A stretch of 32,467 bases of DNA from an uncultured Enterobacterales bacterium (GTDB lineage Bacteria; Myxococcota_A; UBA796; UBA2385). A model generated the notes under the pieces. That model was not told where the DNA came from, ran no database searches, and saw only the letters and a list, made by a program, of their open reading frames with translations. Shown here in pieces: positions 2,875-20,199 of the stretch. How positions within the stretch are numbered: the stretch's first letter is position 1; each line of letters opens with the position of its first letter. The stretch is taken from positions 1-32,467 of the forward strand of contig CAZCUX010000029.1 in NCBI GenBank assembly GCA_964502005.1. Direction: 5' to 3'. The position numbers and the translations under genes are program-made.

Positions 2875-4236
2875 TCAGGTTCGTTCGAGTCGACGGCCAA
2901 ATGTTCGCGCAAACTCGACCGCGAAGCCCAGTGCACGCTGGACATCGGGATCGAAGACTGCCGTGAGGGCGCCAAACGCTCCGACCGGGGCCGGGTTTTG
3001 GATCCGCGTTTGCACGACCGCTTTGCTGGTTGAGCCCACGACATCCACCGCTTCCGCATCAAAGATGCCGGAGACGAGGAGGGTGTCGACGAGGCGGGTG
3101 AGGTCGGGACCACGGGCCGCGACCGTCTTGAGAAGCTTGATGATGACCGGGTCGGTGAGGGCCTCGGCGGCTTCTGCCAACAGGTGCGCCCGCTCGTCGA
3201 GGTCGATTCCGCGGGCGGTGATGCGGGCAGCAAGGCTGTCCAAGGTGTCGACGGCACCTGCGACCATTCCTGGCCCAACCTCGGCAATATCCGCCAGAGC
3301 GTTGAGTTGATGGCTGTTGTCCAATAGACGAGACAACGCAGCCAAGGTCTCTGGGCGTGTGGCACGGTCGAGCACGGGGAGCGCGGCAACAAGCCGTTGG
3401 TCCACATCGACTCCCGCTTGGTGAAGGCGCGCCATGACGCCGTCCAACGTGTCGACCGCACCAGCGAGCACACCGGGGGCTTGCTCTGCGAGGTCGGCGA
3501 GCTGGTGGAGCGCCTCGGGACGAGAAAGCAAGCGTTGCAGGCCCGCCAATGCTTCGGGACGAGTGGCCACTTCGGAAAGCGAGGCCAGCGCGGTGAGGCG
3601 GGTGTCGGGGTCGATGCCTGCGGACAACAGCCGCGCGGCCCAACCGTCGAGGGTGTCGACCGCACCTGCCACAGCACCGGGGATGTGGTCGAGTTGGTCG
3701 ACGAGCAAAGACACGTCCGCGGAGCGGTCCGCCAGGCGGACGAGCGTATCGAGCACGCCGGGACGCGAAACGGCCTCCGCGGCGGCCACCAAGGCCCCCA
3801 AACGCGCGTCTACATCGATGCCCGCAGCCTGCAACCGCGCGACCGCCCCATCGACCGTATCGACGACGCCTGCTGCCATTCCCGGCAGCGACGCGAGCAT
3901 TTCTAGCGACTGCTCGACATGGTCGACGCGCGCGACAAGGCGCTGCAGCCCTTGTGCGGTCGAAGGCGCCGTGAGGGTGCCGACAAGCGAGACTCCAGAG
4001 CGGACGTGCTCATCTACATCGACGCCATGTTCCGCGGCACGGGCTACCGCAGAGTCGACGGTGTCAGTGACGCCCGCCAACAGACCGGGCACTGCGGACG
4101 ATGCCGTCTGCAATGCGGAAACCTGGCCTTCCAAGCGGGCGAGGCGGCCGTCCATCGACTCCAACAACCTGAGGATGTGCAGCATGACAGGGTCCTTTGA
4201 TGGACCTGTCGCTACTTCCGATTCTTGACTTGCCAT
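2875..4236 (-). CDS. DUF1641-like protein made of five tandem ~68-aa repeats, typically encoded next to SQR or NADH-dehydrogenase-like genes
   Basis: Repeat consensus PGxxAGxVDTxDxxxARxxxxGxDxDxRLxxLxxxxExxxRPExLxxLxRLL occurs five times. A DUF1641-type gene next to an SQR is a common arrangement. Likely start is ATG 4236 (MASQESEV...) with GGGAGA upstream. The track start at 4308 is probably too long. Confidence 0.7.
   Translation of the reverse strand: MASQESEVATGPSKDPVMLHILRLLESMDGRLARLEGQVSALQTASSAVPGLLAGVTDTVDSAVARAAEHGVDVDEHVRSGVSLVGTLTAPSTAQGLQRLVARVDHVEQSLEMLASLPGMAAGVVDTVDGAVARLQAAGIDVDARLGALVAAAEAVSRPGVLDTLVRLADRSADVSLLVDQLDHIPGAVAGAVDTLDGWAARLLSAGIDPDTRLTALASLSEVATRPEALAGLQRLLSRPEALHQLADLAEQAPGVLAGAVDTLDGVMARLHQAGVDVDQRLVAALPVLDRATRPETLAALSRLLDNSHQLNALADIAEVGPGMVAGAVDTLDSLAARITARGIDLDERAHLLAEAAEALTDPVIIKLLKTVAARGPDLTRLVDTLLVSGIFDAEAVDVVGSTSKAVVQTRIQNPAPVGAFGALTAVFDPDVQRALGFAVEFARTFGRRLERT
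3070..4089 (-). repeat. Five in-frame tandem repeats of 204 nt (68 codons) inside the DUF1641-like CDS
   Basis: Translation shows five consecutive 68-aa units, each starting with PG[LMAV][LAV]AG[VA][TV]DT[VL]D. Confidence 0.7.
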
Positions 4237-4522
4237 ACGGTCTCCCAAAACGCGGTCCCGTTCTACAACGTGGTTGCATGCAAAAAGCGCGCCACATAAT
4301 CGTAACAAAATGAAATTGTGAGAACATCCAATATACCTATGTTTTCGACCACTTGTACACTCGCCGCTTTGTTGCGTTTGTCCACAGATGATTCACAAGC
4401 TGAACCACTGACACACAATGAATCATGGTTCACAATATAGTTTCAATGAAACATGTAGTATTATTCGACCGAGAACGTCCACAATAACTTAGTATTGACC
4501 CCAAACTTTTTTCCCAAGAAGC

Positions 4523-4551
4523 AAAAAACCCCACAAAAAGTGGGGTTGTTT
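4523..4551 (-). terminator. Rho-independent terminator downstream of the TPR gene
   Basis: Minus-strand reading: stem CCCCAC / GTGGGG with a TTTTT loop, followed by TTTTTT. Lies about 40 nt after the stop at 4585. Confidence 0.6.
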
Positions 4552-4584
4552 CAAGACTTCCTTGCACAACACAAACGGAGCCGG

Positions 4585-5886
4585 TCAACCACCGGGCGAT
4601 GTCGGGGGCGGTGCGGGCGGTGCAGGCGGTGCCTCGGCCTGTTTCTCGGCCATCTTGTCGAGACGAGACTTCGCGCGGTCGAGCTTGGCCACTTTCCAAG
4701 CCTCGCGAAATGCCGCTTCGGCGCCCGCGGTGTCTTTTTTGCGAATCAGCGCAAGCCCTTTGTAATACAACGCGATTCCACGGTCTTGTTTGTCGAGGTC
4801 GGTGTAGGCGAGGTAGCTGTCGAAAGAAGCGATGGCTTCGTCGACCTTGTCCCAACGAAGGTACAATCGCGCGAGATAATAGTGGGCGCGTCTGTTCTTT
4901 GGGTCCGTCTTGAGGACGTGCAAAAGAGTCTTTTCCGACTCCGCGTACATGTTGTTGTACATTTGTACGCGCGCCAACACCTGATTGTTGATGATGTTGT
5001 TGGGGTACCGTTTTTGGTTGCGAAGCGCGCTCTTCAGTGCTTCCTTTTTGGCGCCCTCTTCAATCCAGGTAAACGTGAGCGCGAGCGTAGCGGCGGGCGC
5101 CAAAAAGATGCCCTGGGACTCCACACGACGCATGTCGGCGATTCCATCCACGCGCTTGTCACCCATGTCCGGCAGCGCTTTCGTGGACTTGGACACCACC
5201 GTGACCCAGTAGTTGAACAAGCCATCGCCCATTCGAATGTCGGCGAAGTCGGGCGCAAGCTCCTTCACCCGCTCGACCATCTTCATGGCTTCGTAGCCGC
5301 GAGAGAGCGCCTTCATCCACTCTTCACGGCGCATGGTGTGGATGCTGTCGATACCCAGCACACCAGCCATCAAAAAGTACTCCCAGGCTTCGTTTCCGGG
5401 AAGCTCCATCGCTGCTTGCAACTCTGCCTGGGACTTCCGCAGGGCGGTGAGGTACTGCACTTCGAAGCGAAAGTCGAAGTTTTCGAGCATCAGCGCCTGC
5501 CAGACCAGCACTTCGCCCACAGGGCCGATGCCCCAGCCGGGATACGACTCCCCCAAGGCCGCGAACTGCGCCCGCGCACCCTTATAGTCCCGCAGATAAA
5601 TCAAGTGCAGGCCGTGACGGGCATCGTGGGTAAACTTGGGGTCGAGGTTGAGCACCTTTTGGGCGACATACGCCTCGGGCTCATATTGCTGCCCGGCATA
5701 AGAGCGGACCAACACATCCCACTCCGCCTGCCCTGGCGGTTCACCCGCCGCTTCGAGCAGGGGCTCCAAACGCCGAACTTTGTTCGCCACTACTTGGTCG
5801 GCGTTGGCGTCGTCATCTGCGGCGGCAGGTGACACAACCGAAAAAAGGCCAAGCAAGGCGACAATAGCGAAAGTCCAGCGTTTCAT
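4585..5886 (-). CDS. Secreted TPR-repeat protein
   Basis: N-terminal signal peptide MKRWTFAIVALLGLFSVVSPAAA. Multiple TPR-like helical repeats (AHYYLARLYLRWDKVDEAIASFD..., YYKGLALIRKKDTAGAEAAF). Starts 8 nt after the gshB stop. Confidence 0.7.
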   Translation of the reverse strand: MKRWTFAIVALLGLFSVVSPAAADDDANADQVVANKVRRLEPLLEAAGEPPGQAEWDVLVRSYAGQQYEPEAYVAQKVLNLDPKFTHDARHGLHLIYLRDYKGARAQFAALGESYPGWGIGPVGEVLVWQALMLENFDFRFEVQYLTALRKSQAELQAAMELPGNEAWEYFLMAGVLGIDSIHTMRREEWMKALSRGYEAMKMVERVKELAPDFADIRMGDGLFNYWVTVVSKSTKALPDMGDKRVDGIADMRRVESQGIFLAPAATLALTFTWIEEGAKKEALKSALRNQKRYPNNIINNQVLARVQMYNNMYAESEKTLLHVLKTDPKNRRAHYYLARLYLRWDKVDEAIASFDSYLAYTDLDKQDRGIALYYKGLALIRKKDTAGAEAAFREAWKVAKLDRAKSRLDKMAEKQAEAPPAPPAPPPTSPGG

Positions 5887-6980: not shown

Positions 6981-8339
6981 TCATTTGCCGATACAAAACC
7001 GTGAAAACAGGCGGTCGAGGATGTCTTCGCGGACATCGTCTCCCCGCAATGCACCGAGACGTTCGAGGGCCGCGGTTACTTCTTCGGCGGCCACGACGGG
7101 GCCAACGAAGCCATCGAGCGCATCGGCAGCTTCGCTGACATGTGCCGCCACACGCACCAATAGGTCGTGCTGCCTTCGACTTCCGAGGACGGCTTCGCCA
7201 GCGGGGTCGACGCCCACCACCCATGCGCGGAGGGCGCTGCGCAATGCCTCGATTCCAGCGCCGGTGGTGCTGCTCACCCAATGGTCCGCGGCAGGCGGTG
7301 ATTCCGATGGTGCGCAGAGGTCGCGGTGCGTCGCGACCGCCCAGCCATCGCCAGGCGGAGCGTCACCGAGACCGGGATGAAACACACGAAGCTGGAGGTC
7401 GGCGGAGGCGGCGAGGCGCGCGCCGAGGGCGATTCCCGCCGCTTCAATCTGGTCGTCGGCCTGGCGCAGTCCCGCAGTGTCGACAAAGGTGACGGACACG
7501 CCGTCCCACTCTACCGTTCGCTCGACCGCATCGCGCGTGGTGCCAGGACGGGAGCTGACGAGGGCCCGCTCGCTGCCCACCAGTTGATTGAACAAGCTCG
7601 ACTTGCCGGCGTTGACGTCACCTACAAGGGCCACGACCGCGCCCTCAATACGACGACGAGCGGAGGTCCAGGTTCCGGCGAGGCGATGGAGGTCTTGGGC
7701 CAATGCGCGCAAAGCAGCCGATACATCGGCATCATCGGCCTCCCCCAAGCCTTCACCGGGATGGTCGAGGCGCGCTTCGAGCTCCGCGCCGAGGTCGAGC
7801 AAGCGATGGCGTAGATTGTCGACGACCAACGACAGCTCGCCATCCAAACCAGTGCGCGCCGCACGCACACCCCCCAGCGTGCGCGCACGAATCAGGGCAT
7901 CTACGCCTTCGGCTTGAAGAAGGTCGATACGTCCGCGGACCAAAGCACGTCGCGTAAACTCACCTGGGTCTGCCGGACGCGCGCCCAATGCAACGCAACG
8001 GTCGATGATTGCATCGACCACCACGGGATTCCCGTGACAGGCAATCTCAACGACCGTCTCCCCGGTGTAGCTGCGCGGGCCCGGCATCCAGACGACCAAT
8101 GCTTCGTCGAGTACGCCGTCTTCGCCGCGACAAACGCGAACCGAAGCCCGGCGTGCGACCCACGGTGGACCGCCCGGACACAGCCGCGCCACAACGGCTT
8201 GGGCCGCTGGGCCACTGAGCCGAATCAGCGAGACAGCGCCGCGCCCAGCCGGTGAGGCGGACGCGACGATGGTGTCTTGGTCGCGGGCAGACACGTAGAC
8301 GGGCCTATGCCTATTCTTCGCCGCGACCGCCACCGCCAC
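6981..8339 (-). CDS. mnmE: tRNA modification GTPase MnmE (TrmE)
   Basis: DTIVA...SPAGRGAVSLIRLSG N-domain. GEFTRRA...GRIDLLQAEGV. G1 motif GDVNAGKSSLFN. DTAG. Diagnostic C-terminal FCIGK. The start is uncertain: ATG 8339 overlaps jag by 29 nt, and GTG 8294 would remove the overlap. Confidence 0.9.
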   Translation of the reverse strand: MAVAVAAKNRHRPVYVSARDQDTIVASASPAGRGAVSLIRLSGPAAQAVVARLCPGGPPWVARRASVRVCRGEDGVLDEALVVWMPGPRSYTGETVVEIACHGNPVVVDAIIDRCVALGARPADPGEFTRRALVRGRIDLLQAEGVDALIRARTLGGVRAARTGLDGELSLVVDNLRHRLLDLGAELEARLDHPGEGLGEADDADVSAALRALAQDLHRLAGTWTSARRRIEGAVVALVGDVNAGKSSLFNQLVGSERALVSSRPGTTRDAVERTVEWDGVSVTFVDTAGLRQADDQIEAAGIALGARLAASADLQLRVFHPGLGDAPPGDGWAVATHRDLCAPSESPPAADHWVSSTTGAGIEALRSALRAWVVGVDPAGEAVLGSRRQHDLLVRVAAHVSEAADALDGFVGPVVAAEEVTAALERLGALRGDDVREDILDRLFSRFCIGK

Positions 8340-9279
8340 CGGCGGGAACGATGATGATGCGCTTCATGGACCCGTCGCCAGAGCTCTCGGTGGCCACACC
8401 GGAGAAGTCGGCCAGCTCCAGGTGCACCACGCGGCGCTCGTAGGAGTTCATCTCCTTCCGCATCGTGACGGCTTCGCCAGTCTTCGCGACCTTTGCAGCC
8501 AAGCGGCGCGCCAAGGACTTGAGGCGGTCAATGTCGCGGTCGGAAGCGCGACCGCTGTCGCGGGGACCACGGTCATCGCGGGGACCACGGTCATCGCGAG
8601 GGCCACGGTCATCGCGAGGGCCACGGTCATCGCGGGGACCACGGTCATCGCGGGGACCACGACGGTCATCGCGGGGGCCACGGTCGTCGCGGGGGCCCCG
8701 ACGGTCATCGCGGGGGCCACGGTCGTCGCGGGGGCCGCGGCGGTCGTCACGGGGGCCGCGACGGTCATCGCGGGGGCCGCGGTCGTCGCGCGGGCCCCGA
8801 CGGTCATCACGCGGGCCGCGGTCGTCGTCGTCCCGACGCCGTCCACCTTCGATGTTCAGCTCAATCTGCCAACCGCCTTGGTCTGCAGCGAGTGCCGCGT
8901 CCATCAGGCGACGAATCGAGCGCAGAGTCGCACCCCGACGACCGACAAGGTGCCGTGCGGCGGGGCTGTCGATGCTGACTTCGGCCTGGTTTTCGCCCAC
9001 CACGCGCGCCGACACGGTGCCTTCGAGGCCCATGAGGGTCAACAGCTTCTTCACCCATGCCACCGCTGCATCGGCGCCGCTCGCATCGGGGACATCCCGC
9101 GCTTCGGCGATGATTTTGACGGTATCCATAGGACGGCTGCGGCCATCGGTGGTTCGGAAATGGCTGGTGTCGAGCTTCCACGCGACGGCATCGCGGGGCA
9201 CACCAAGCTGCTCGGCCGCGGCGGTCACGGCTTCGGCGACGGTGCGGCCCTCAACGATGATGGACGAAGATTGGGTCAT
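8311..9279 (-). CDS. khpB: Jag/KhpB RNA-binding protein (Jag_N + KH + R3H) with a long RGPRDD repeat linker
   Basis: Conserved position between yidC and mnmE. N-terminal MTQSSSIIVEGRTVAEAV (Jag_N-like) and C-terminal R3H-like region (MNSYERRVVHLELADF). ATG 9279 has AGGGAG 7 nt upstream. The track start at 9360 adds 27 atypical residues. Confidence 0.8.
   Translation of the reverse strand: MTQSSSIIVEGRTVAEAVTAAAEQLGVPRDAVAWKLDTSHFRTTDGRSRPMDTVKIIAEARDVPDASGADAAVAWVKKLLTLMGLEGTVSARVVGENQAEVSIDSPAARHLVGRRGATLRSIRRLMDAALAADQGGWQIELNIEGGRRRDDDDRGPRDDRRGPRDDRGPRDDRRGPRDDRRGPRDDRGPRDDRRGPRDDRGPRDDRRGPRDDRGPRDDRGPRDDRGPRDDRGPRDDRGPRDSGRASDRDIDRLKSLARRLAAKVAKTGEAVTMRKEMNSYERRVVHLELADFSGVATESSGDGSMKRIIIVPAGGGGGRGEE
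8561..8835 (-). repeat. Tandem 18/21-nt repeats (about 15 units) encoding (R)RGPRDD in the Jag linker
   Basis: Plus strand shows cggggaccacggtcatcg / cgggggccacggtcgtcg units in direct succession. They translate on the minus strand to RGPRDD(R) x ~15. Confidence 0.85.
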
Positions 9280-9381
9280 GAGACACTCCCTGTAGAACAG
9301 TGAGGGTGGATACGCCGTAGGGGCAACCGCGCCCCCCATCCACGGTCGCCCACCCGCCATCGGGAGGCGCCGCGCTGGATG

Positions 9382-11100
9382 TCAGACGGCGACAGGTGCG
9401 GCAGCCAAGCGCCGCCGGATGAGCCACTGCTGAAGAATCGTCAGCAGCATATTCACGCAGAAGTAGAGCACCAGCCCCGAGGGGAAGCTGAACATCAGGA
9501 ACGCGAAAAAGATGGGCATCATCTTCATCATCCGCGCCTGGGCGGGGTCCATGTTCGCCATGGGCATCATCGCCTGCTGGATGACAATAAGAATGCCATA
9601 GAGCGTAGGCACGACCCCATACGGGTCGGCGGCGGTGAGGTCCTGCAGGTACAAAAACTGTGCGTCATACAGCTCTACGCTGTAGTACATTACACTATAC
9701 AATGCGAAGAAAACGGGCATCTGTACCAGCATGGGCAAACAACCACCAAGTGGGCTGACACCATGCTTTTGCCACAGCTTCATCATCTCTTGACTTTGTA
9801 GCTGTTGGTCGTCTTTGTACTTCTCACGCAGCGCTTCGATTTCAGGCTGAATCTTCTTCATCTGCTCCGAGCTGGCCAGGGCCTTTTCGTTGAGACGGAA
9901 GAACAACAGCTTGATGGTCAGCGTCAGCAGAATAATCGCGACGCCCCAGTTGCCGACACCTGCGTGGAAGAACTCGAGGAACAGCAGCAAAATCTTGGAG
10001 AAGAAGCCGAACCAACCGTATTCCACGGCTTCATCGAGGTCGGGCCCTACATCGCGCAAGATGTCGAGGGTCTTTGGACCCACGTACGCGGTGAAGCGGA
10101 GGGTACGGGTAGCGCCGGCATCGAGGGGGGCGTCGAGGTAGAACGAGCCCAAGCGACCGCCGGGGAGCTGGTCCATCACCACGGTGGCTTCGGGCAGCGC
10201 CTCGGCGGTGGCGTCCGCGGGCAAGATAGCGGCGAGGAAGTAGCGGTCGCCGACGCCGAGCCAGCTCACGGGGCCAGCAAAGCGCTCCTCGTCCGCACCT
10301 TCGACATCGCCGGTCGACATCACGCTCTCGAGACCGTCGACATAGGCTTGGGGGTGGGTGACGTTCGCCGAACGGTCGAACATACCGCCACCTTCGCCTT
10401 CCATGCGCTCCGCGACACCCACCCAAACCGGACCAACGGTGGTGCCGGAATTGTTGGTGAAGGCGACCTCTACCTGCGTAGTGTAGGGCTTTTCGCCCGG
10501 CCGGTAGGTCTTTGTGATGACAAGGCCGTCGGCGCGGCTTCGACGTGCGACCACCGCGTCGCCGCTTCGTGCGACTTGGTAGGCGCTATTTCCACCTGCG
10601 GTTCCCGCGCCATCGTCATCGAGGGGACCTGCGCCCGCCAAGACCAACACCGCATCGCGGGTGAGGACCTGGCGTGGGGTGTCGCCCCCCGCATACGGCG
10701 CCCACGAATCGCTGGTGCGACCGAGCACGGCATCCACCGCCCAGGTCCAAATGGGCTTGACCTGCACCATCGCATCGAAGGACTCCAGCTCCACGGCGCG
10801 CAGGCCGCCGTTTTCGCTGGACACCACACCTGCACCGCCATCGAGCTTCAGCGACTCTTCGTGCGCCGAAATGCTCGCAGCAGCAGGGAGTGGCGCCGCG
10901 ACCGGCGCGCTGCCCACCACTGCAGGAGTGGCGGCGGTTTCCGCGGGCACCTCCGCAGGCGGAGGTAGCTCTGGCGGCGGAAACATCCACTGCCAGGACA
11001 CGAGAATCAGCATGCTAAGCGCAACGGCGAGAATTACGCGCCGCTCCTGATCACTTTTCACCAGAGCCTCCAGCGCTTGGGGCGCGAGAGCTGCCTCCAT
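9382..11100 (-). CDS. yidC: Membrane protein insertase YidC
   Basis: N-terminal TM segment plus a large periplasmic domain. Conserved C-terminal core KLWQKHGVSPLGGCLPMLVQMPVFFALY...MMKMMPIFFAFLMFSFPSGLVLYF. Confidence 0.9.
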   Translation of the reverse strand: MEAALAPQALEALVKSDQERRVILAVALSMLILVSWQWMFPPPELPPPAEVPAETAATPAVVGSAPVAAPLPAAASISAHEESLKLDGGAGVVSSENGGLRAVELESFDAMVQVKPIWTWAVDAVLGRTSDSWAPYAGGDTPRQVLTRDAVLVLAGAGPLDDDGAGTAGGNSAYQVARSGDAVVARRSRADGLVITKTYRPGEKPYTTQVEVAFTNNSGTTVGPVWVGVAERMEGEGGGMFDRSANVTHPQAYVDGLESVMSTGDVEGADEERFAGPVSWLGVGDRYFLAAILPADATAEALPEATVVMDQLPGGRLGSFYLDAPLDAGATRTLRFTAYVGPKTLDILRDVGPDLDEAVEYGWFGFFSKILLLFLEFFHAGVGNWGVAIILLTLTIKLLFFRLNEKALASSEQMKKIQPEIEALREKYKDDQQLQSQEMMKLWQKHGVSPLGGCLPMLVQMPVFFALYSVMYYSVELYDAQFLYLQDLTAADPYGVVPTLYGILIVIQQAMMPMANMDPAQARMMKMMPIFFAFLMFSFPSGLVLYFCVNMLLTILQQWLIRRRLAAAPVAV

Positions 11101-11859: not shown

Positions 11860-12015
11860 TCAGGTGGCCTTCGTCCGAACGGTCGGGACAAGACGCTTAC
11901 GGCCCTTCGCGCGGCGGCGCTTCAGGACGTTGCGGCCCCCGGTGGTGGCCATACGGGCACGGAAGCCGTGCGAGCGCTTCCGCTTGATGTTGCTTGGCTG
12001 GTACGTCCGCTTCAC
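11860..12015 (-). CDS. rpmH: 50S ribosomal protein L34
   Basis: [45 protein letters not shown] start at 12015 with a GGGAGG Shine-Dalgarno 5 nt upstream. Embedded in a longer spurious track ORF (11860..12393). Confidence 0.85.
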
Positions 12016-12379
12016 AGGGACCTCCCGAAAGGGCTGCCGCCCCCAACCTGCTGGGAGGCCGCGGACTTCCGCGGCTCCCGATGGCCCGATGGGGGATGGG
12101 CGTGGGGCCCGAATAACCGGGCCGATTCTGGGTAAAAACGCGGCGAAGACAGACTTTTCCGCGTGGGGTTCGGAACGGAAACCGCGATGGTTTCCGAGAT
12201 CGAGGGTTCGTGGTGCAAGCCTACCCTGCGGGCGAGACACGCATCCTTGAAACCGGCTGTCGCCCGTATGCCATCGCGGGGCCAGTGGCAAGCCCCAGAC
12301 CGTCAACACAGCCGCGGCGCGCGCACTGCTCTGCCGAGGATGGGCGCTGGAGCGGCACGGTGATTCTCCGAGGTCACTG

Positions 12380-12590
12380 GGTTGACGTTCCAAGAGTTGT
12401 CCCCAACCCCAAGCGATCCCCTGAAGCGATCAATCCGCTGAATTGCGATCAAGAACCCTTTGATTCATGCGGACTTACGAAGCCTGTGGAAAAACTGTCC
12501 CCAAACCTATCCCGAAGTCCGAGCACGTTTTCCCCCGAATCCCCTACGTTCTCCCCAGGGGGGGGGATCTATTGGGGACTACTTTGCGTT
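12380..12590. promoter_or_regulatory. dnaA upstream region carrying DnaA-box-like sites and the TGTCCCCA repeat motif
   Basis: TGTGGAAAA at 12485-12493 matches the TGTGGATAA consensus at 8 of 9 positions. GTTGTCCCCAAC at 12396-12407. CTGTCCCCAAAC at 12495-12506. Inverted TTGGGGACT at 12572-12580. Confidence 0.4.
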
Positions 12591-12921
12591 GTGCCCAGCA
12601 CTGGCGCATTCTCAACGCCATGGCGCGGCTTGGACCTGGGGATGGCTTGTCGGCAGGGGGGTGGGCTGCTACCCTCCGGGGGTCTTTCCGTTGGACCTAT
12701 TTGAAGATCAGAAACCGCATAAATGCGCTGTTTTCCGCATCTTCTCCCATGACTGCGAGATCGACGGCCCCATGGTCGTGCGACCCCGCGTTCGCGGCAT
12801 CGAAACGGGCGTGCAGGCGAGGATTCTCGTCGCGCGACCCGTAGGACCACCCTTTTTTCTGGCTACGAGACTCGTCATCGGCGGCACAACGCTCCGTTTT
12901 CGAGCCATTGGAGACTCCACC

Positions 12922-14475
12922 ATGGTGACCGCCTGGGACGAAACCCGTAAAGCGCTGCGGCAAGAACTTGGCGCGTTGTACGACATCTGGATTTCGCCGC
13001 TCAAGTTCCACACCATCACCCACAATGGTGCGATTCCTACCGTCCATTTGATTGCGCCGAACGATGTGTTTCGAAACTATGTGCGCACCGGCTACCTCGC
13101 GCCGCTCGTGAACGAGCTTCGCCGTCATATGGCGCCCTCGACGGTCGTAGAACTTTGGCTGGCAGGCGAAAACCTCCCCAGTCACGAGCCACAGGTGTTG
13201 TTTCCGTCTCTTCCGGCACTTCCCGAGCTCGCGTCCCCGGCAACCCCGAGCGAGCAACAAGCCGCGCGCTCCGCTCGCGTGTGGAGCCAAGAGCCCCAGC
13301 TGCTCAAGGTGGAAGCAACGCCACAACCTCGGCTTTTTCCGGACCCGCAGCCACCCCAAGCGCACGTTCCCGAGGAGCCGCCCACTTATCCGCTGGTCGA
13401 GACAACTCCTGCCGATGAGCCAGAGTCGCCCACCGCTCTCTCGGGCCCGTTGCCGCCCGACAAGACCTTCGACCGTTTTGTCGTCGGTGGCTGCAACCAG
13501 TTTGCGCACGCAGCGGCGATGTCGGTCGCCGAGGACCCGTCGGGCGGCCGGTACAATCCCCTGTTCATTTACGGGGGCACCGGGCTCGGAAAGACGCACC
13601 TCATGGTCGCGGTGGGCCATCGCCGCTTGGCCCGTTCGCCTGGCGCGCGGGTGCTCTACGTCACGGCCGAGCAGTTCACCAATGAGCTCATCGAAGCGCT
13701 GCGTTTCAAGCGCATGTCCGAGTTCCGCGACCGCTACCGCAACAACGTCGACCTCTTGCTCATGGACGACATCCAATTCGTCACCGGCAAAGAGCGGACC
13801 CAAGAGGAGTTGTTCCACACATTTGAATGGCTGCGAGAGCGCGGACGTCAAATCATCTTCACGGCGGACGTTTTGCCGCGCGACATTCGGGGCTTCGAAC
13901 CCCGCCTGCGAACCCGCTGTGAGAGCGGCATGCTGGCCGACATGCAGCCTCCAGATTTGGAGACCCTCGTAGCGATTCTTCACGACAAGAGCGCCGCATC
14001 GAACATCGAGTTGACCTCCGATGTTGCCTCGTACATTGCCAGCCGCGTTCGGGGCTCCATCCGCGAAATTGAAGGCGTCGTGCATCGTTTGGGCGCTCTC
14101 TGTCGCCTCTACCGCGAGACACCATCCATCGGATTTGTGCGCGCCCACCTCGGCAACGTTCTGCCGGATGGTCCCCCCGTGGTCAATGCCGATGATGTTG
14201 TACAAGAGGTCGCCACCGCCTTTGCGGTGCCGGTTGCCCAAATCATGGGCCGCCAGCGTTTGCGGCAGCTCGTGCAGCCGCGCCATGTCGCGATGTACCT
14301 CGTAAGAAAGCACACCGGTGCGTCGTTTCCGGAGATGGGACGCTACTTCAAGCGCGACCACACCACAATTCACCACGCCTACGCAAAGATTGATGGCGAG
14401 CTGATGACCGACAGCGAGCTCCGCCAAATTGTGCACATCATCGAGCGGGCCTTGGTACACGGCATTCGAAGCTGA
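12922..14475 (+). CDS. dnaA: Chromosomal replication initiator DnaA
   Basis: N-terminal MVTAWDETRKALRQELGALYDIWISPL. Pro-rich linker. AAA+ domain with GGTGLGKTHL and LLMDDIQF. C-terminal DNA-binding domain. GGAG lies 8 nt upstream of ATG 12922. The track start at 12460 adds a 154-aa W/C/R/G-rich non-protein-like extension. Confidence 0.9.
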   Translation: MVTAWDETRKALRQELGALYDIWISPLKFHTITHNGAIPTVHLIAPNDVFRNYVRTGYLAPLVNELRRHMAPSTVVELWLAGENLPSHEPQVLFPSLPALPELASPATPSEQQAARSARVWSQEPQLLKVEATPQPRLFPDPQPPQAHVPEEPPTYPLVETTPADEPESPTALSGPLPPDKTFDRFVVGGCNQFAHAAAMSVAEDPSGGRYNPLFIYGGTGLGKTHLMVAVGHRRLARSPGARVLYVTAEQFTNELIEALRFKRMSEFRDRYRNNVDLLLMDDIQFVTGKERTQEELFHTFEWLRERGRQIIFTADVLPRDIRGFEPRLRTRCESGMLADMQPPDLETLVAILHDKSAASNIELTSDVASYIASRVRGSIREIEGVVHRLGALCRLYRETPSIGFVRAHLGNVLPDGPPVVNADDVVQEVATAFAVPVAQIMGRQRLRQLVQPRHVAMYLVRKHTGASFPEMGRYFKRDHTTIHHAYAKIDGELMTDSELRQIVHIIERALVHGIRS

Positions 14476-14501
14476 CCGTTTCTTTTGGCCCCGCACCTCC
14501 A

Positions 14502-14529
14502 CCGACCCTCTGGGGTCGGTTTTTTTTTT
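14502..14529 (+). terminator. Rho-independent terminator immediately after dnaA
   Basis: Perfect 7-bp stem CCGACCC / GGGTCGG with loop TCTG, followed by a run of about 10 T. Lies 27 nt after the dnaA stop. Confidence 0.75.
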
Positions 14530-15106
14530 GCGCATGCGGGACCCCCGCGTCCTTGTTTTTCCGGTCGGGGGAGAAGTTCGCTACCGGCTTCTCTCGCGGG
14601 GCGGAAAATCTCCGAAGCCTGGGGAAAACTCTCCGATTTGTCCCCACAATTTCCCCAACGGGTGTCCACAGGTGGGGATGACTTGCGTGGAAAAATGACG
14701 CGGAACTGTTTCACGCAAAGAAGTATTCCCTGACTGCCAATGTTTTCGACGATATGGCAAAAACTGTTCCACCTGGGGATGACGCTGGGGATAAGCAGGG
14801 GAAAGTCCCGGAGTGCCTGTGGACAGTTGGGGACAACGGTTGGTTTTCCCCAGGCGTCCAACGGGCATCCCCAGGTTCCACAAGGCCCGGTCCACAAACC
14901 GGCATTGTCAAAAATGCTGATGTAGACTTGGTTTTGAAAGTCATCCCCTCTGTCCCCAGCCCTCGATCGATCGATGACGACGATCTAAATACAAAAAAAT
15001 CTTCGAACCGATCGATCGTAGGACGCTCGTGGCAGGGGTGTGGCCAGCCCCCCCTCTGACGGGGTAGTCCCCGCGCCACATCTGTGCTCCCGCGACTGGA
15101 GAAGGC
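14530..15106. promoter_or_regulatory. Candidate oriC in the dnaA-dnaN spacer: DnaA-box-like cluster plus an AT-rich unwinding element
   Basis: TGTCCACAG 14664-14672. TGGGGATGAC twice (14673-14682, 14774-14783). TGGGGATAA 14786-14794 matches TGTGGATAA at 8 of 9. TGTGGACAG 14818-14826. GTGGAAAAA 14687-14695. TGTCCCCA at 14639-14646 and 14951-14958, and inverted within GTTGGGGACAAC 14826-14837. TCCACAA twice (14878-14884, 14891-14897). AT-rich GATCTAAATACAAAAAAATCTTCGAA 14982-15007, flanked by palindromes TCGATCGATCGA (14964-14975) and CGATCGATCG (15009-15018). Confidence 0.5.
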
Positions 15107-16225
15107 ATGGACTTGTACATCGAGCGTGACCAGCTCATCCGCGGATTGTCCCGCGTTCAGGGCGTGGTCGAGCGACGCACCACAAACCCGATTCTCGCCA
15201 ACGTGCTGCTGAGCGCCCAAGGCAACAAGCTGCAAATGACGGCCACGGACGGCGCGCTCACGCTCGTCGCGTCCTACCCGGCCAGCGTTGAAGGCGAAGG
15301 CGAACTCCCAGTCGATGCACAGCGGCTCTTCAGCATCGCGCGCACTCTGACGGAGCCGGTCGTCCACCTCACGTTCAGCAAAGGCAACCGCCTGCGCTTG
15401 CGCTGCGGAAAGGTCGACTTCAACATCGTCGGCGCCAACCCCGAAGAGTACCCGCCGCTCCCCGTTCGCGACGAGCGCTCGGCTCTGAAGGTCACCGGCG
15501 GGCACCTCCGGCGCATCATCGAAGAGACGCTCTCGAGCATCTCCACCGATGAGAGTCGCTATGGCCTGAATGGCGGTCACATCGAGCAAAGCATCACTGT
15601 TTCTGGTGAAAAGCGAATTCGGCTCGTCACCACCGATGGCAGCCGCTTGTCGTGGTCTGAAGCCCCATTCAGTGGCGAGTTCTCGATTTCCAACCAGGTG
15701 CTCGTGCCGCGGAAGGCGCTCAATGAAGCCAAAAAGCTGATTGAGCAAGACGAACACGAATGGAGTGTGTCCTTTGGCGACCGCTCCGCCGTGTTCTCCA
15801 ACGAAGACACCACGTTCATGCTGCGCCTCATCGACGGCGAGTTCCCCGACTACCGGCAGGTGCTCCCCGCAGCCGCCCGTCGCCGGGTGAAGGTCGAGCG
15901 CGAGTCCTTCGCGTCCGCGCTGCGCCGCGTCGGCATCATGGCCTCCGACCGCAACCACTCGGTGCACTTCGCGTTTGAAGAGAGCCGCGTGGTGCTCAAG
16001 GCTCACAACGTCGACACCGGCGATGTCCGCGAAGAAGTACCCGCCGACCTTGAAGGGAGCCCCGTCTTCACGGGCTTCAACGTCAAGTACTTCCAGGACA
16101 TCCTCGCGGCGACCCGCAGCCAGGACCTCATCCTTGAGCTCGGTGAGCCGCTCGACCCATGCCTCATCCGGCTGCCCGACCGTGACGATTGTATGTTCGT
16201 CGTGATGCCCATGCGCCTTGATTGA
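15107..16225 (+). CDS. dnaN: DNA polymerase III beta sliding clamp
   Basis: MDLYIERDQLIRGLSRVQGVVERRTTNPILANVLL...three-domain clamp pattern. GGAGAAGG Shine-Dalgarno before the ATG. Confidence 0.9.
   Translation: MDLYIERDQLIRGLSRVQGVVERRTTNPILANVLLSAQGNKLQMTATDGALTLVASYPASVEGEGELPVDAQRLFSIARTLTEPVVHLTFSKGNRLRLRCGKVDFNIVGANPEEYPPLPVRDERSALKVTGGHLRRIIEETLSSISTDESRYGLNGGHIEQSITVSGEKRIRLVTTDGSRLSWSEAPFSGEFSISNQVLVPRKALNEAKKLIEQDEHEWSVSFGDRSAVFSNEDTTFMLRLIDGEFPDYRQVLPAAARRRVKVERESFASALRRVGIMASDRNHSVHFAFEESRVVLKAHNVDTGDVREEVPADLEGSPVFTGFNVKYFQDILAATRSQDLILELGEPLDPCLIRLPDRDDCMFVVMPMRLD

Positions 16226-16268: not shown

Positions 16269-20199
<3,931 letters not shown>

Follow-up and report, generated by a model that had tools for sequence, protein, structure and literature searches.

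Contig CAZCUX010000029.1, which was analysed over 32,467 nucleotides (the window), carries dnaA and dnaN as neighbouring plus-strand genes separated by an unusually box-rich spacer. Pfam searches and the open reading frame (ORF) map placed recF (16269-17417) and gyrB (to 20199) downstream of dnaN, followed on the same strand by fabH and two genes for ArsA-like ATPases as far as about 23.4 kb. On the other side of dnaA, all on the minus strand and read leftward, lie genes for a pyridine-nucleotide oxidoreductase, a DUF1641 protein and a TPR protein, then gshB, mnmE (6981-8339), jag (8311-9360), yidC (9382-11100), yidD, rnpA and rpmH (about 11860-12015). The ten minus-strand genes on the left diverge from the seven plus-strand genes on the right, and this gene order is the classical origin-region cluster. 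The evidence assembled below indicates that the dnaA-dnaN spacer is very probably the chromosomal origin of replication (oriC) or, at the least, its unwinding half. The features of the locus are collected in the table.

Table. Features of the dnaA region, with positions in the window
Feature	Position	Strand	Description and basis
Second DnaA-box cluster, rpmH-dnaA spacer	12397..12645		12397+, 12485-, 12495+, 12549+, 12573-, 12637-
Promoter-like TTGTCG - 17 nt - TACCCT	12647-52, 12670-75		conserved, just 3' of the upstream boxes
dnaA	12922..14475	+	517 aa; DnaA_N, AAA+ and helix-turn-helix domains; Pfam, translation, gene call
dnaA-dnaN spacer	14476-15106		631 bp; dnaA stop codon ends at 14475, dnaN ATG at 15107
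Intrinsic terminator of dnaA	14501..14530	+	stem ACCGACCC / GGGTCGGT, loop TCTG, T10
Left (distal) group, six box-like 9-mers	14620..14694	mixed	14620-, 14638+, 14649+, 14662+, 14673-, 14686-
Four-box array	14774..14836	-	TCATCCCCA, TTATCCCCA, CTGTCCACA, TTGTCCCCA
Four-box array, diverging from the minus array	14844..14896	+	TTTTCCCCA, GCATCCCCA, GGTTCCACA, CGGTCCACA
Abutting tandem box pair	14941..14958	+	TCATCCCCT (14941-14949), CTGTCCCCA (14950-14958)
Most conserved spacer block	14963..14985		palindrome TCGATCGATCGA and 17-mer GATCGATGACGACGATC, three GATC; invariant alignment columns
Period-3 array, candidate variant DnaA-trios	14972..14983	-	top CGA TGA CGA CGA; bottom 3'-GCT ACT GCT GCT-5'
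Candidate DNA unwinding element	14982..15007		AT-rich 26-mer GATCTAAATACAAAAAAATCTTCGAA; top AT 20-mer of the window
Right-hand palindrome	15009..15018		CGATCGATCG, two GATC; core ATCGATC invariant in relatives
Promoter-like block TGGCCA - 18 nt - TAGTCC	15041..15070	+	kept in relatives as GGTGGCCAG.CCCCCACCTGGCGGGGTAGTCC
GGAG ribosome-binding site of dnaN	15098-15101	+	3' of the promoter-like block
dnaN, beta sliding clamp	15107..16225	+	372 aa; Pfam, gene call

The spacer is crowded with sequences resembling DnaA boxes. The core TCC[A/C]CA (box positions 4-9) was found 50 times on the two strands of the 32.5 kb, and 14 of these copies fell in the spacer, which makes up 1.9% of the window and would be expected to hold about one (binomial p 5e-13); a further six lay in the rpmH-dnaA spacer. 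First-order Markov simulations of the dnaA-dnaN spacer gave a mean of 1.2 core matches and a maximum of seven in 5000 runs. A relaxed search that allowed up to two mismatches to TTATCCACA gave 55 sites in the window, 10 of them in 14501-15000. When boxes were counted in 300-bp bins, the three densest bins all fell within the two spacers flanking dnaA. An unbiased 6-mer enrichment analysis ranked TCCCCA/TGGGGA first (10 observed against 0.25 expected), with CGATCG and ATCGAT, both derived from the palindromes described below, as the next words. The original prediction had proposed a dense cluster of six box-like 9-mers at this position. The density was confirmed, but the size had been underestimated, with about 15-16 such 9-mers now recognised in the spacer. 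All those named were recovered at coordinates that were exact or off by 1-2, namely TGTCCACAG at 14663, TGTGGACAG at 14818, TGGGGATAA at 14786, TGGGGATGAC at both 14673 and 14774, and GTGGAAAAA at 14687. In most copies box position 7 is a C, and the local consensus of the boxes is TnTCCCCAG.

Seven relatives with a dnaA-dnaN spacer (L037, L039, L043, L044, L045, L046 and L163; DnaA 53-61% identical) were compared with the window, giving a family of eight, and a Myxococcota metagenome-assembled genome (MAG), L169, was used as outgroup. The closest other DnaA proteins are 55-61% identical, and the closest named ones belong to Myxococcota MAGs. When contigs were scanned with DnaA, only distant taxa were recovered (DnaA 33-56% and DnaN about 30% identical), which were of no use for footprinting. 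In the window, the distal box group is followed by a minus-strand and then a plus-strand array that diverge from each other, and a moderately AT-rich linker separates the latter from the abutting tandem pair. The first two boxes of the minus array align with a block, CTGGGGAnAAC.CTGGGGAnAA, that is kept in the relatives, and the tandem pair is kept in all seven as TCCCCAGnATCCCCAG. The last box, 5'-CTGTCCCCA-3', is directed at the AT-rich stretch beyond it, with the polarity of E. coli R1. The spacer therefore contains well over the three boxes at a mean spacing below 100 bp that define a box cluster, together with a pair beside the putative unwinding site that is directed at it.

The AT-rich 26-mer reported near dnaN, and the GATC-containing palindromes said to bracket it (TCGATCGATCGA at 14963-14974 on the left and CGATCGATCG on the right), were both present. 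At 85% AT, a 20-mer in this stretch exceeds all others of the window in AT content, and the stretch is among the window's five least stable 30-mers. It starts 23 nt, or about two helical turns, from the last box. At the sequence level the box polarity agrees with that of the MG1655 oriC, and the distance with the two-helical-turn rule applied to the verified Bdellovibrio origin (PMC5124646). Mean column identity of the relatives' spacers was 47%, and what they had in common was the minus-then-plus order of boxes, the tandem pair, the 17-mer GATCGAYGACKAYKATS, the far-side ATCGATC, the promoter-like block and GGAG. The sequence between the 17-mer and ATCGATC varied freely and was always AT-rich in the relatives; in all seven, the equivalent stretch ranked first or second among the least stable 30-mers of the locus (5.9-9.7 kb), and it ranked first in L037, L039, L043 and L046. 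Fixed position combined with free sequence is the expected look of an unwinding element. In the outgroup, 18 of the 29 core sites lay in the dnaA-dnaN spacer, and at 5188-5260 the homologous place was occupied by a module consisting of TTTTCCACA and CTATCCACA, a 12-nt spacer, CTA CTA CTA ATT and an AT-rich segment. A metagenome scan with the pattern GATCGAYGACNAYNAT-N20-40-ATCGATC matched at least 120 stretches. Among the matches listed, only L153, whose spacer sequence is the same as that of L037, and L163 were dnaA-dnaN loci, which argues against a widespread mobile or generic element; the other listed stretches gave no dnaA, dnaN or recF match and presumably matched by chance.

The tetranucleotide GATC was distributed very unevenly. 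Outside the two spacers flanking dnaA it was about five-fold depleted, with 20 sites observed against 114 expected (ratio 0.18), whereas inside the two spacers 12 GATC were observed against 11 expected; CTAG was depleted as well (5 against 31). Thus 12 of the 32 GATC of the window lie in 4.7% of its length (p 1e-8), five of them clustered in 14965-15017 and seven in 12198-12762. Coding depletion was weaker in the relatives, yet their spacers contained 1.4- to 5-fold more GATC per kb, and several sites were conserved. It is a possibility that the GATC sites in and around the period-3 array are functionally constrained, perhaps via methylation control. GATC clusters at both the candidate origin and the dnaA promoter region are what an origin of the Dam/SeqA type would be expected to display, and no domain of a GATC methyltransferase or of a hemimethylated-GATC-binding protein was detected among the 30 window ORFs scanned against Pfam. 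Beyond some Gammaproteobacteria, a Dam/SeqA system is not known to occur. In the outgroup, four GATC sites fall within about 50 bp of the AT-rich element, in repeated GATCTnCTAC-like units that recall the E. coli 13-mers.

This retention of GATC against genome-wide depletion, the partly palindromic nature of the 17-mer GATCGATGACTACGATC, as for a dimeric double-strand binder, and the C that replaces the canonical A at position 7 of the commonest box form would all suit an explanation in which the TCCCCAG repeats and ATCGATCG palindromes are bound by proteins that are not DnaA, or make up a repeat family that plays no part in initiation. We regard this as exceedingly improbable, since TCCACA and TCCCCA interchange at aligned positions in the relatives and the outgroup, the canonical TTTTCCACA and CTATCCACA fill the same slots in the outgroup, and the motif is restricted to the spacers on either side of dnaA. 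A regulator acting on the palindromes would, moreover, be compatible with an origin.

Several observations weigh against an origin in the dnaA-dnaN spacer. At 26 bp the AT stretch is short, and its instability is equalled or surpassed by other intergenic regions, at 4.3-4.5 kb and 25.9 kb. Canonical DnaA-trios were found neither in the window nor at the homologous site in the seven relatives. GC skew shows no minimum at the spacer, although within 32 kb it follows gene strand and is thus uninformative either way. Conserved boxes occur in both spacers flanking dnaA, and boxes alone therefore do not discriminate between them. Lastly, dnaN is not next to dnaA in L041/L042 (gene at 4001-5569) and L167 (3001-4341); in L041 and L167 a protein kinase or ABC transporter gene on the opposite strand lies 6-18 bp past dnaA. 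Linkage of dnaA and oriC is thus not universal in the clade, and because the rpmH-dnaA spacer of L167 is devoid of boxes, the origin of that genome is presumably elsewhere, perhaps with dnaN. In some bacteria oriC is unlinked to dnaA, and these rearranged neighbourhoods in two relatives could likewise be taken to mean that the origin of the window's chromosome is located elsewhere, both box clusters being sites of DnaA-dependent transcriptional control or titration. The AT-rich element at a fixed distance and polarity from the tandem pair, for which a titration site has no need, makes such an arrangement very improbable.

The second box cluster, in the 906-bp rpmH-dnaA spacer, comprises six core matches where about 1.4 would be expected (p 0.003). 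In the seven relatives these boxes are kept at fixed distances from the dnaA ATG (-520 to -285), and one of them is invariant and leads into nine consecutive G (TTCTCCCCA-GGGGGGGGG, 12549-12566). The length of this spacer, the positional conservation of its six core boxes and its location exactly at the switch in gene orientation are what would be expected if it were the true or only origin, with the dnaA-dnaN cluster serving DnaA-regulated control of dnaN transcription. We consider this very improbable for several reasons. The upstream boxes stand directly 5' of a conserved promoter-like element of dnaA, the usual autoregulatory layout, and box density is 6.6 per kb upstream against 22 per kb downstream. 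The least stable 30-mers upstream are weaker than those downstream in the window and in six of the seven relatives (L045 being the exception) and vary in position, so that no AT-rich element keeps a fixed place in the rpmH-dnaA spacer. In L167, where dnaN is not beside dnaA, this spacer has neither boxes nor an AT-rich element and hence need not be an origin, and the canonical trio module of the outgroup is downstream of dnaA. Most likely the rpmH-dnaA spacer is mainly the autoregulated promoter of dnaA. A second cluster upstream of dnaA is also a hallmark of bipartite origins, and the origin may accordingly have two parts, as in B. subtilis, H. pylori and C. difficile; we hold this to be possible, with more doubt than confidence.

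DnaA-trios have been reported in about 85% of predicted origins, and the rule for the basal unwinding system (BUS) calls for at least three NAN trios (consensus 3'-GAT-5') no more than 16 nt from a box, on the strand complementary to TTATCCACA (PMC8287927). Both PMC7561715 and the E. coli oriC bear out this choice of strand. The script that found no canonical trios at our locus did detect trios in the outgroup and, among 22 unrelated dnaA-dnaN spacers from distant taxa, in 15. Beginning 13 nt past the last box, after a GC-rich, GATC-containing spacer, the window instead carries a period-3 array that reads 3'-GCT ACT GCT GCT-5' rather than repeats of 3'-GAT-5', and therefore fails the published (NAN)>=3 rule. 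The corresponding array reads 3'-GCT RCT GAT RMT-5' in the relatives and, in the same register, 3'-GAT GAT GAT TAA-5' in the outgroup. Among the relatives, variation was limited to G/A at the first and C/A at the second position of each triplet, and the third was invariant. The pattern (YKA)x4 occurs three times in the 65 kb represented by both strands of the window, a count that is only indicative since the pattern was defined after being seen.

Work in B. subtilis has shown that a central cytosine is about equal to adenine in supporting strand separation, and better than G or T in vivo; it is tolerated because Asn187 reads the exocyclic amino group, and the authors raised natural variants of such trios as a possibility (PMC10721633). 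On the basis of the array's register and pattern of substitution, we tentatively suggest that the origin of this lineage might use a natural DnaA-trio variant with cytosine in place of the central adenine, although we think it rather doubtful. As the 17-mer is partly palindromic, a regulator that binds double-stranded DNA is an equally simple reading. The DnaA protein itself retains the base-contacting RDHTT motif (alignment to 1J1V). Among residues with trio-capture roles in B. subtilis DnaA (E183, N187, I190, I193, N196, R202 and E228; PMC10721633), alignment to 8BTG showed that I193 is replaced by L and N196 by K, while E183, N187, I190, R202 and E228, together with K222 and E223, are retained (B. 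subtilis numbering). Domain I and AAA+ are also joined by a long proline-rich linker (13500-13850, residues about 195-310), which accounts for the protein's 517 aa, several more distant homologues being about 440-460 aa long.

At the start of the spacer, the predicted textbook terminator was borne out as an 8-bp stem (six G-C pairs) closed by a 4-nt loop (14501-14520), with T10 directly after it at 14521-30; the folding energy of 14476-14560 was -27.1 kcal/mol (z -2.0). Its proposed role in insulating the origin from dnaA is plausible, but a strict rule of a hairpin with a T-rich tail 3' of dnaA was passed by only four of the eight family members, the window included, and by neither of two outgroups. 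At the other end of the spacer, the conserved TGGCCA - 18 nt - TAGTCC block is the predicted dnaN promoter. A consensus promoter scan of 11-16 kb yielded no hits, and it is thus on conservation that the promoter assignments at this locus are based.

Searches for other elements added little. No Rfam family was found in the spacer, and the search of 11.8-15.3 kb gave only a sub-threshold match inside dnaA to AsdA, the antisense RNA of dnaA mRNA (13570-13650, minus strand; 24 bits against a gathering score of 52, E 0.064), which is probably due to chance. A parS reading of the half-sites GTTCCAC and TGTTTCACG was rejected, the full palindrome being absent. An inverted repeat, TTGCGTGGAA / TTTCACGCAA, with 16 nt between its arms (14683-14718), resembles separated parS half-sites and lies in a region that could not be aligned with the relatives. 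Identical protein and DNA were present in two public read sets, L035 and, at 99.7%, L036. The spacer of L036 differs by only two single-nucleotide changes, at 14565 and 14929, both outside the boxes and too few to be of use; its main difference from the window is a cluster of substitutions with a 3-nt shift in jag (8686-8725).

Taken together, gene context, the excess of boxes, the AT-rich element, conservation in relatives and the outgroup module support the layout originally predicted, in which a box cluster is followed by an unwinding element and then dnaN. From the elements observed and from their excess, polarity, spacing and conservation, we infer how an origin in the dnaA-dnaN spacer would work. 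DnaA would bind about 15 TnTCCCCAG boxes distributed over the leftward array, the rightward array and the distal group. The abutting pair would anchor a DnaA oligomer directed at the AT stretch about two helical turns away, and this oligomer would spread across the conserved 14963-14985 element and melt the AT stretch, where the helicase would then be loaded. Transcription of dnaA would end at the terminator, and dnaN would be served by its own promoter downstream of the unwinding site. The upstream cluster would autoregulate the dnaA promoter, and might also act as a second part of the origin.

Such an origin is of the commonest type and in the most usual place, with binding motifs slightly off the textbook. 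What sets it apart are the TCCCCA boxes, the apparent replacement of canonical trios by a conserved C-centred period-3 array, and the retention of GATC. The oriC of Bdellovibrio bacteriovorus, which has been verified experimentally in the same gene cluster (PMC5124646), shares with the window its location between dnaA and dnaN, a relaxed consensus (NN(A/T)TCCACA) and an unwinding element about two helical turns from an oriented box. The Bdellovibrio spacer is, however, 232 bp long and has eight boxes, a dnaA-proximal unwinding element and canonical GAT trios (PMC5124646), whereas that of the window has 631 bp, about 15 boxes that are mostly TCCCCA, an unwinding element at the dnaN end and no canonical trios. 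The order of dnaA, boxes, tandem pair, short spacer, period-3 element, AT stretch and dnaN is that of B. subtilis incC/BUS (PMC6669920, PMC8287927, PMC10721633) and C. difficile oriC2 (PMC7561715). The likeness to these two extends to a second box cluster upstream of dnaA and to most of the trio-capture residues, but not to the C-centred period-3 element, the changes I193 to L and N196 to K, or the terminator between dnaA and the origin.

High-GC actinobacterial origins contain many degenerate boxes of the TTGTCCACA type, a trait shared with the window. As in the origins of M. tuberculosis and Streptomyces (PMC2607554), the dnaA-dnaN spacer is about 0.5-1 kb long in a GC-rich genome and contains a short AT-rich unwinding site. 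In contrast to Actinobacteria, the window belongs to another phylum, position 7 of its boxes is mostly C, and GATC palindromes bracket the unwinding element. A direct reading of the E. coli MG1655 oriC (NC_000913.3 3925744-3925975) revealed the same R1 polarity towards the unwinding element and a 13-nt GC-rich spacer with GATC, R1 there likewise being 13 nt from the 13-mers. The AT stretch also starts with GATCT as the 13-mers do, and GATC clusters occur at the origin and upstream of dnaA in both; in E. coli, however, oriC is not beside dnaA, and the window lacks 13-mer repeats.

The likely start of replication is thereby fixed for a GC-rich, uncultured lineage that has Myxococcota MAGs as its closest named relatives, and this start point may be used to orient genomes, to estimate growth rates from read coverage and to design vectors. 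If the C-centred trios prove to be true, they would provide a testable evolutionary counterpart to the base-capture model of B. subtilis, and could partly explain why trio searches fail in roughly 15% of predicted origins.

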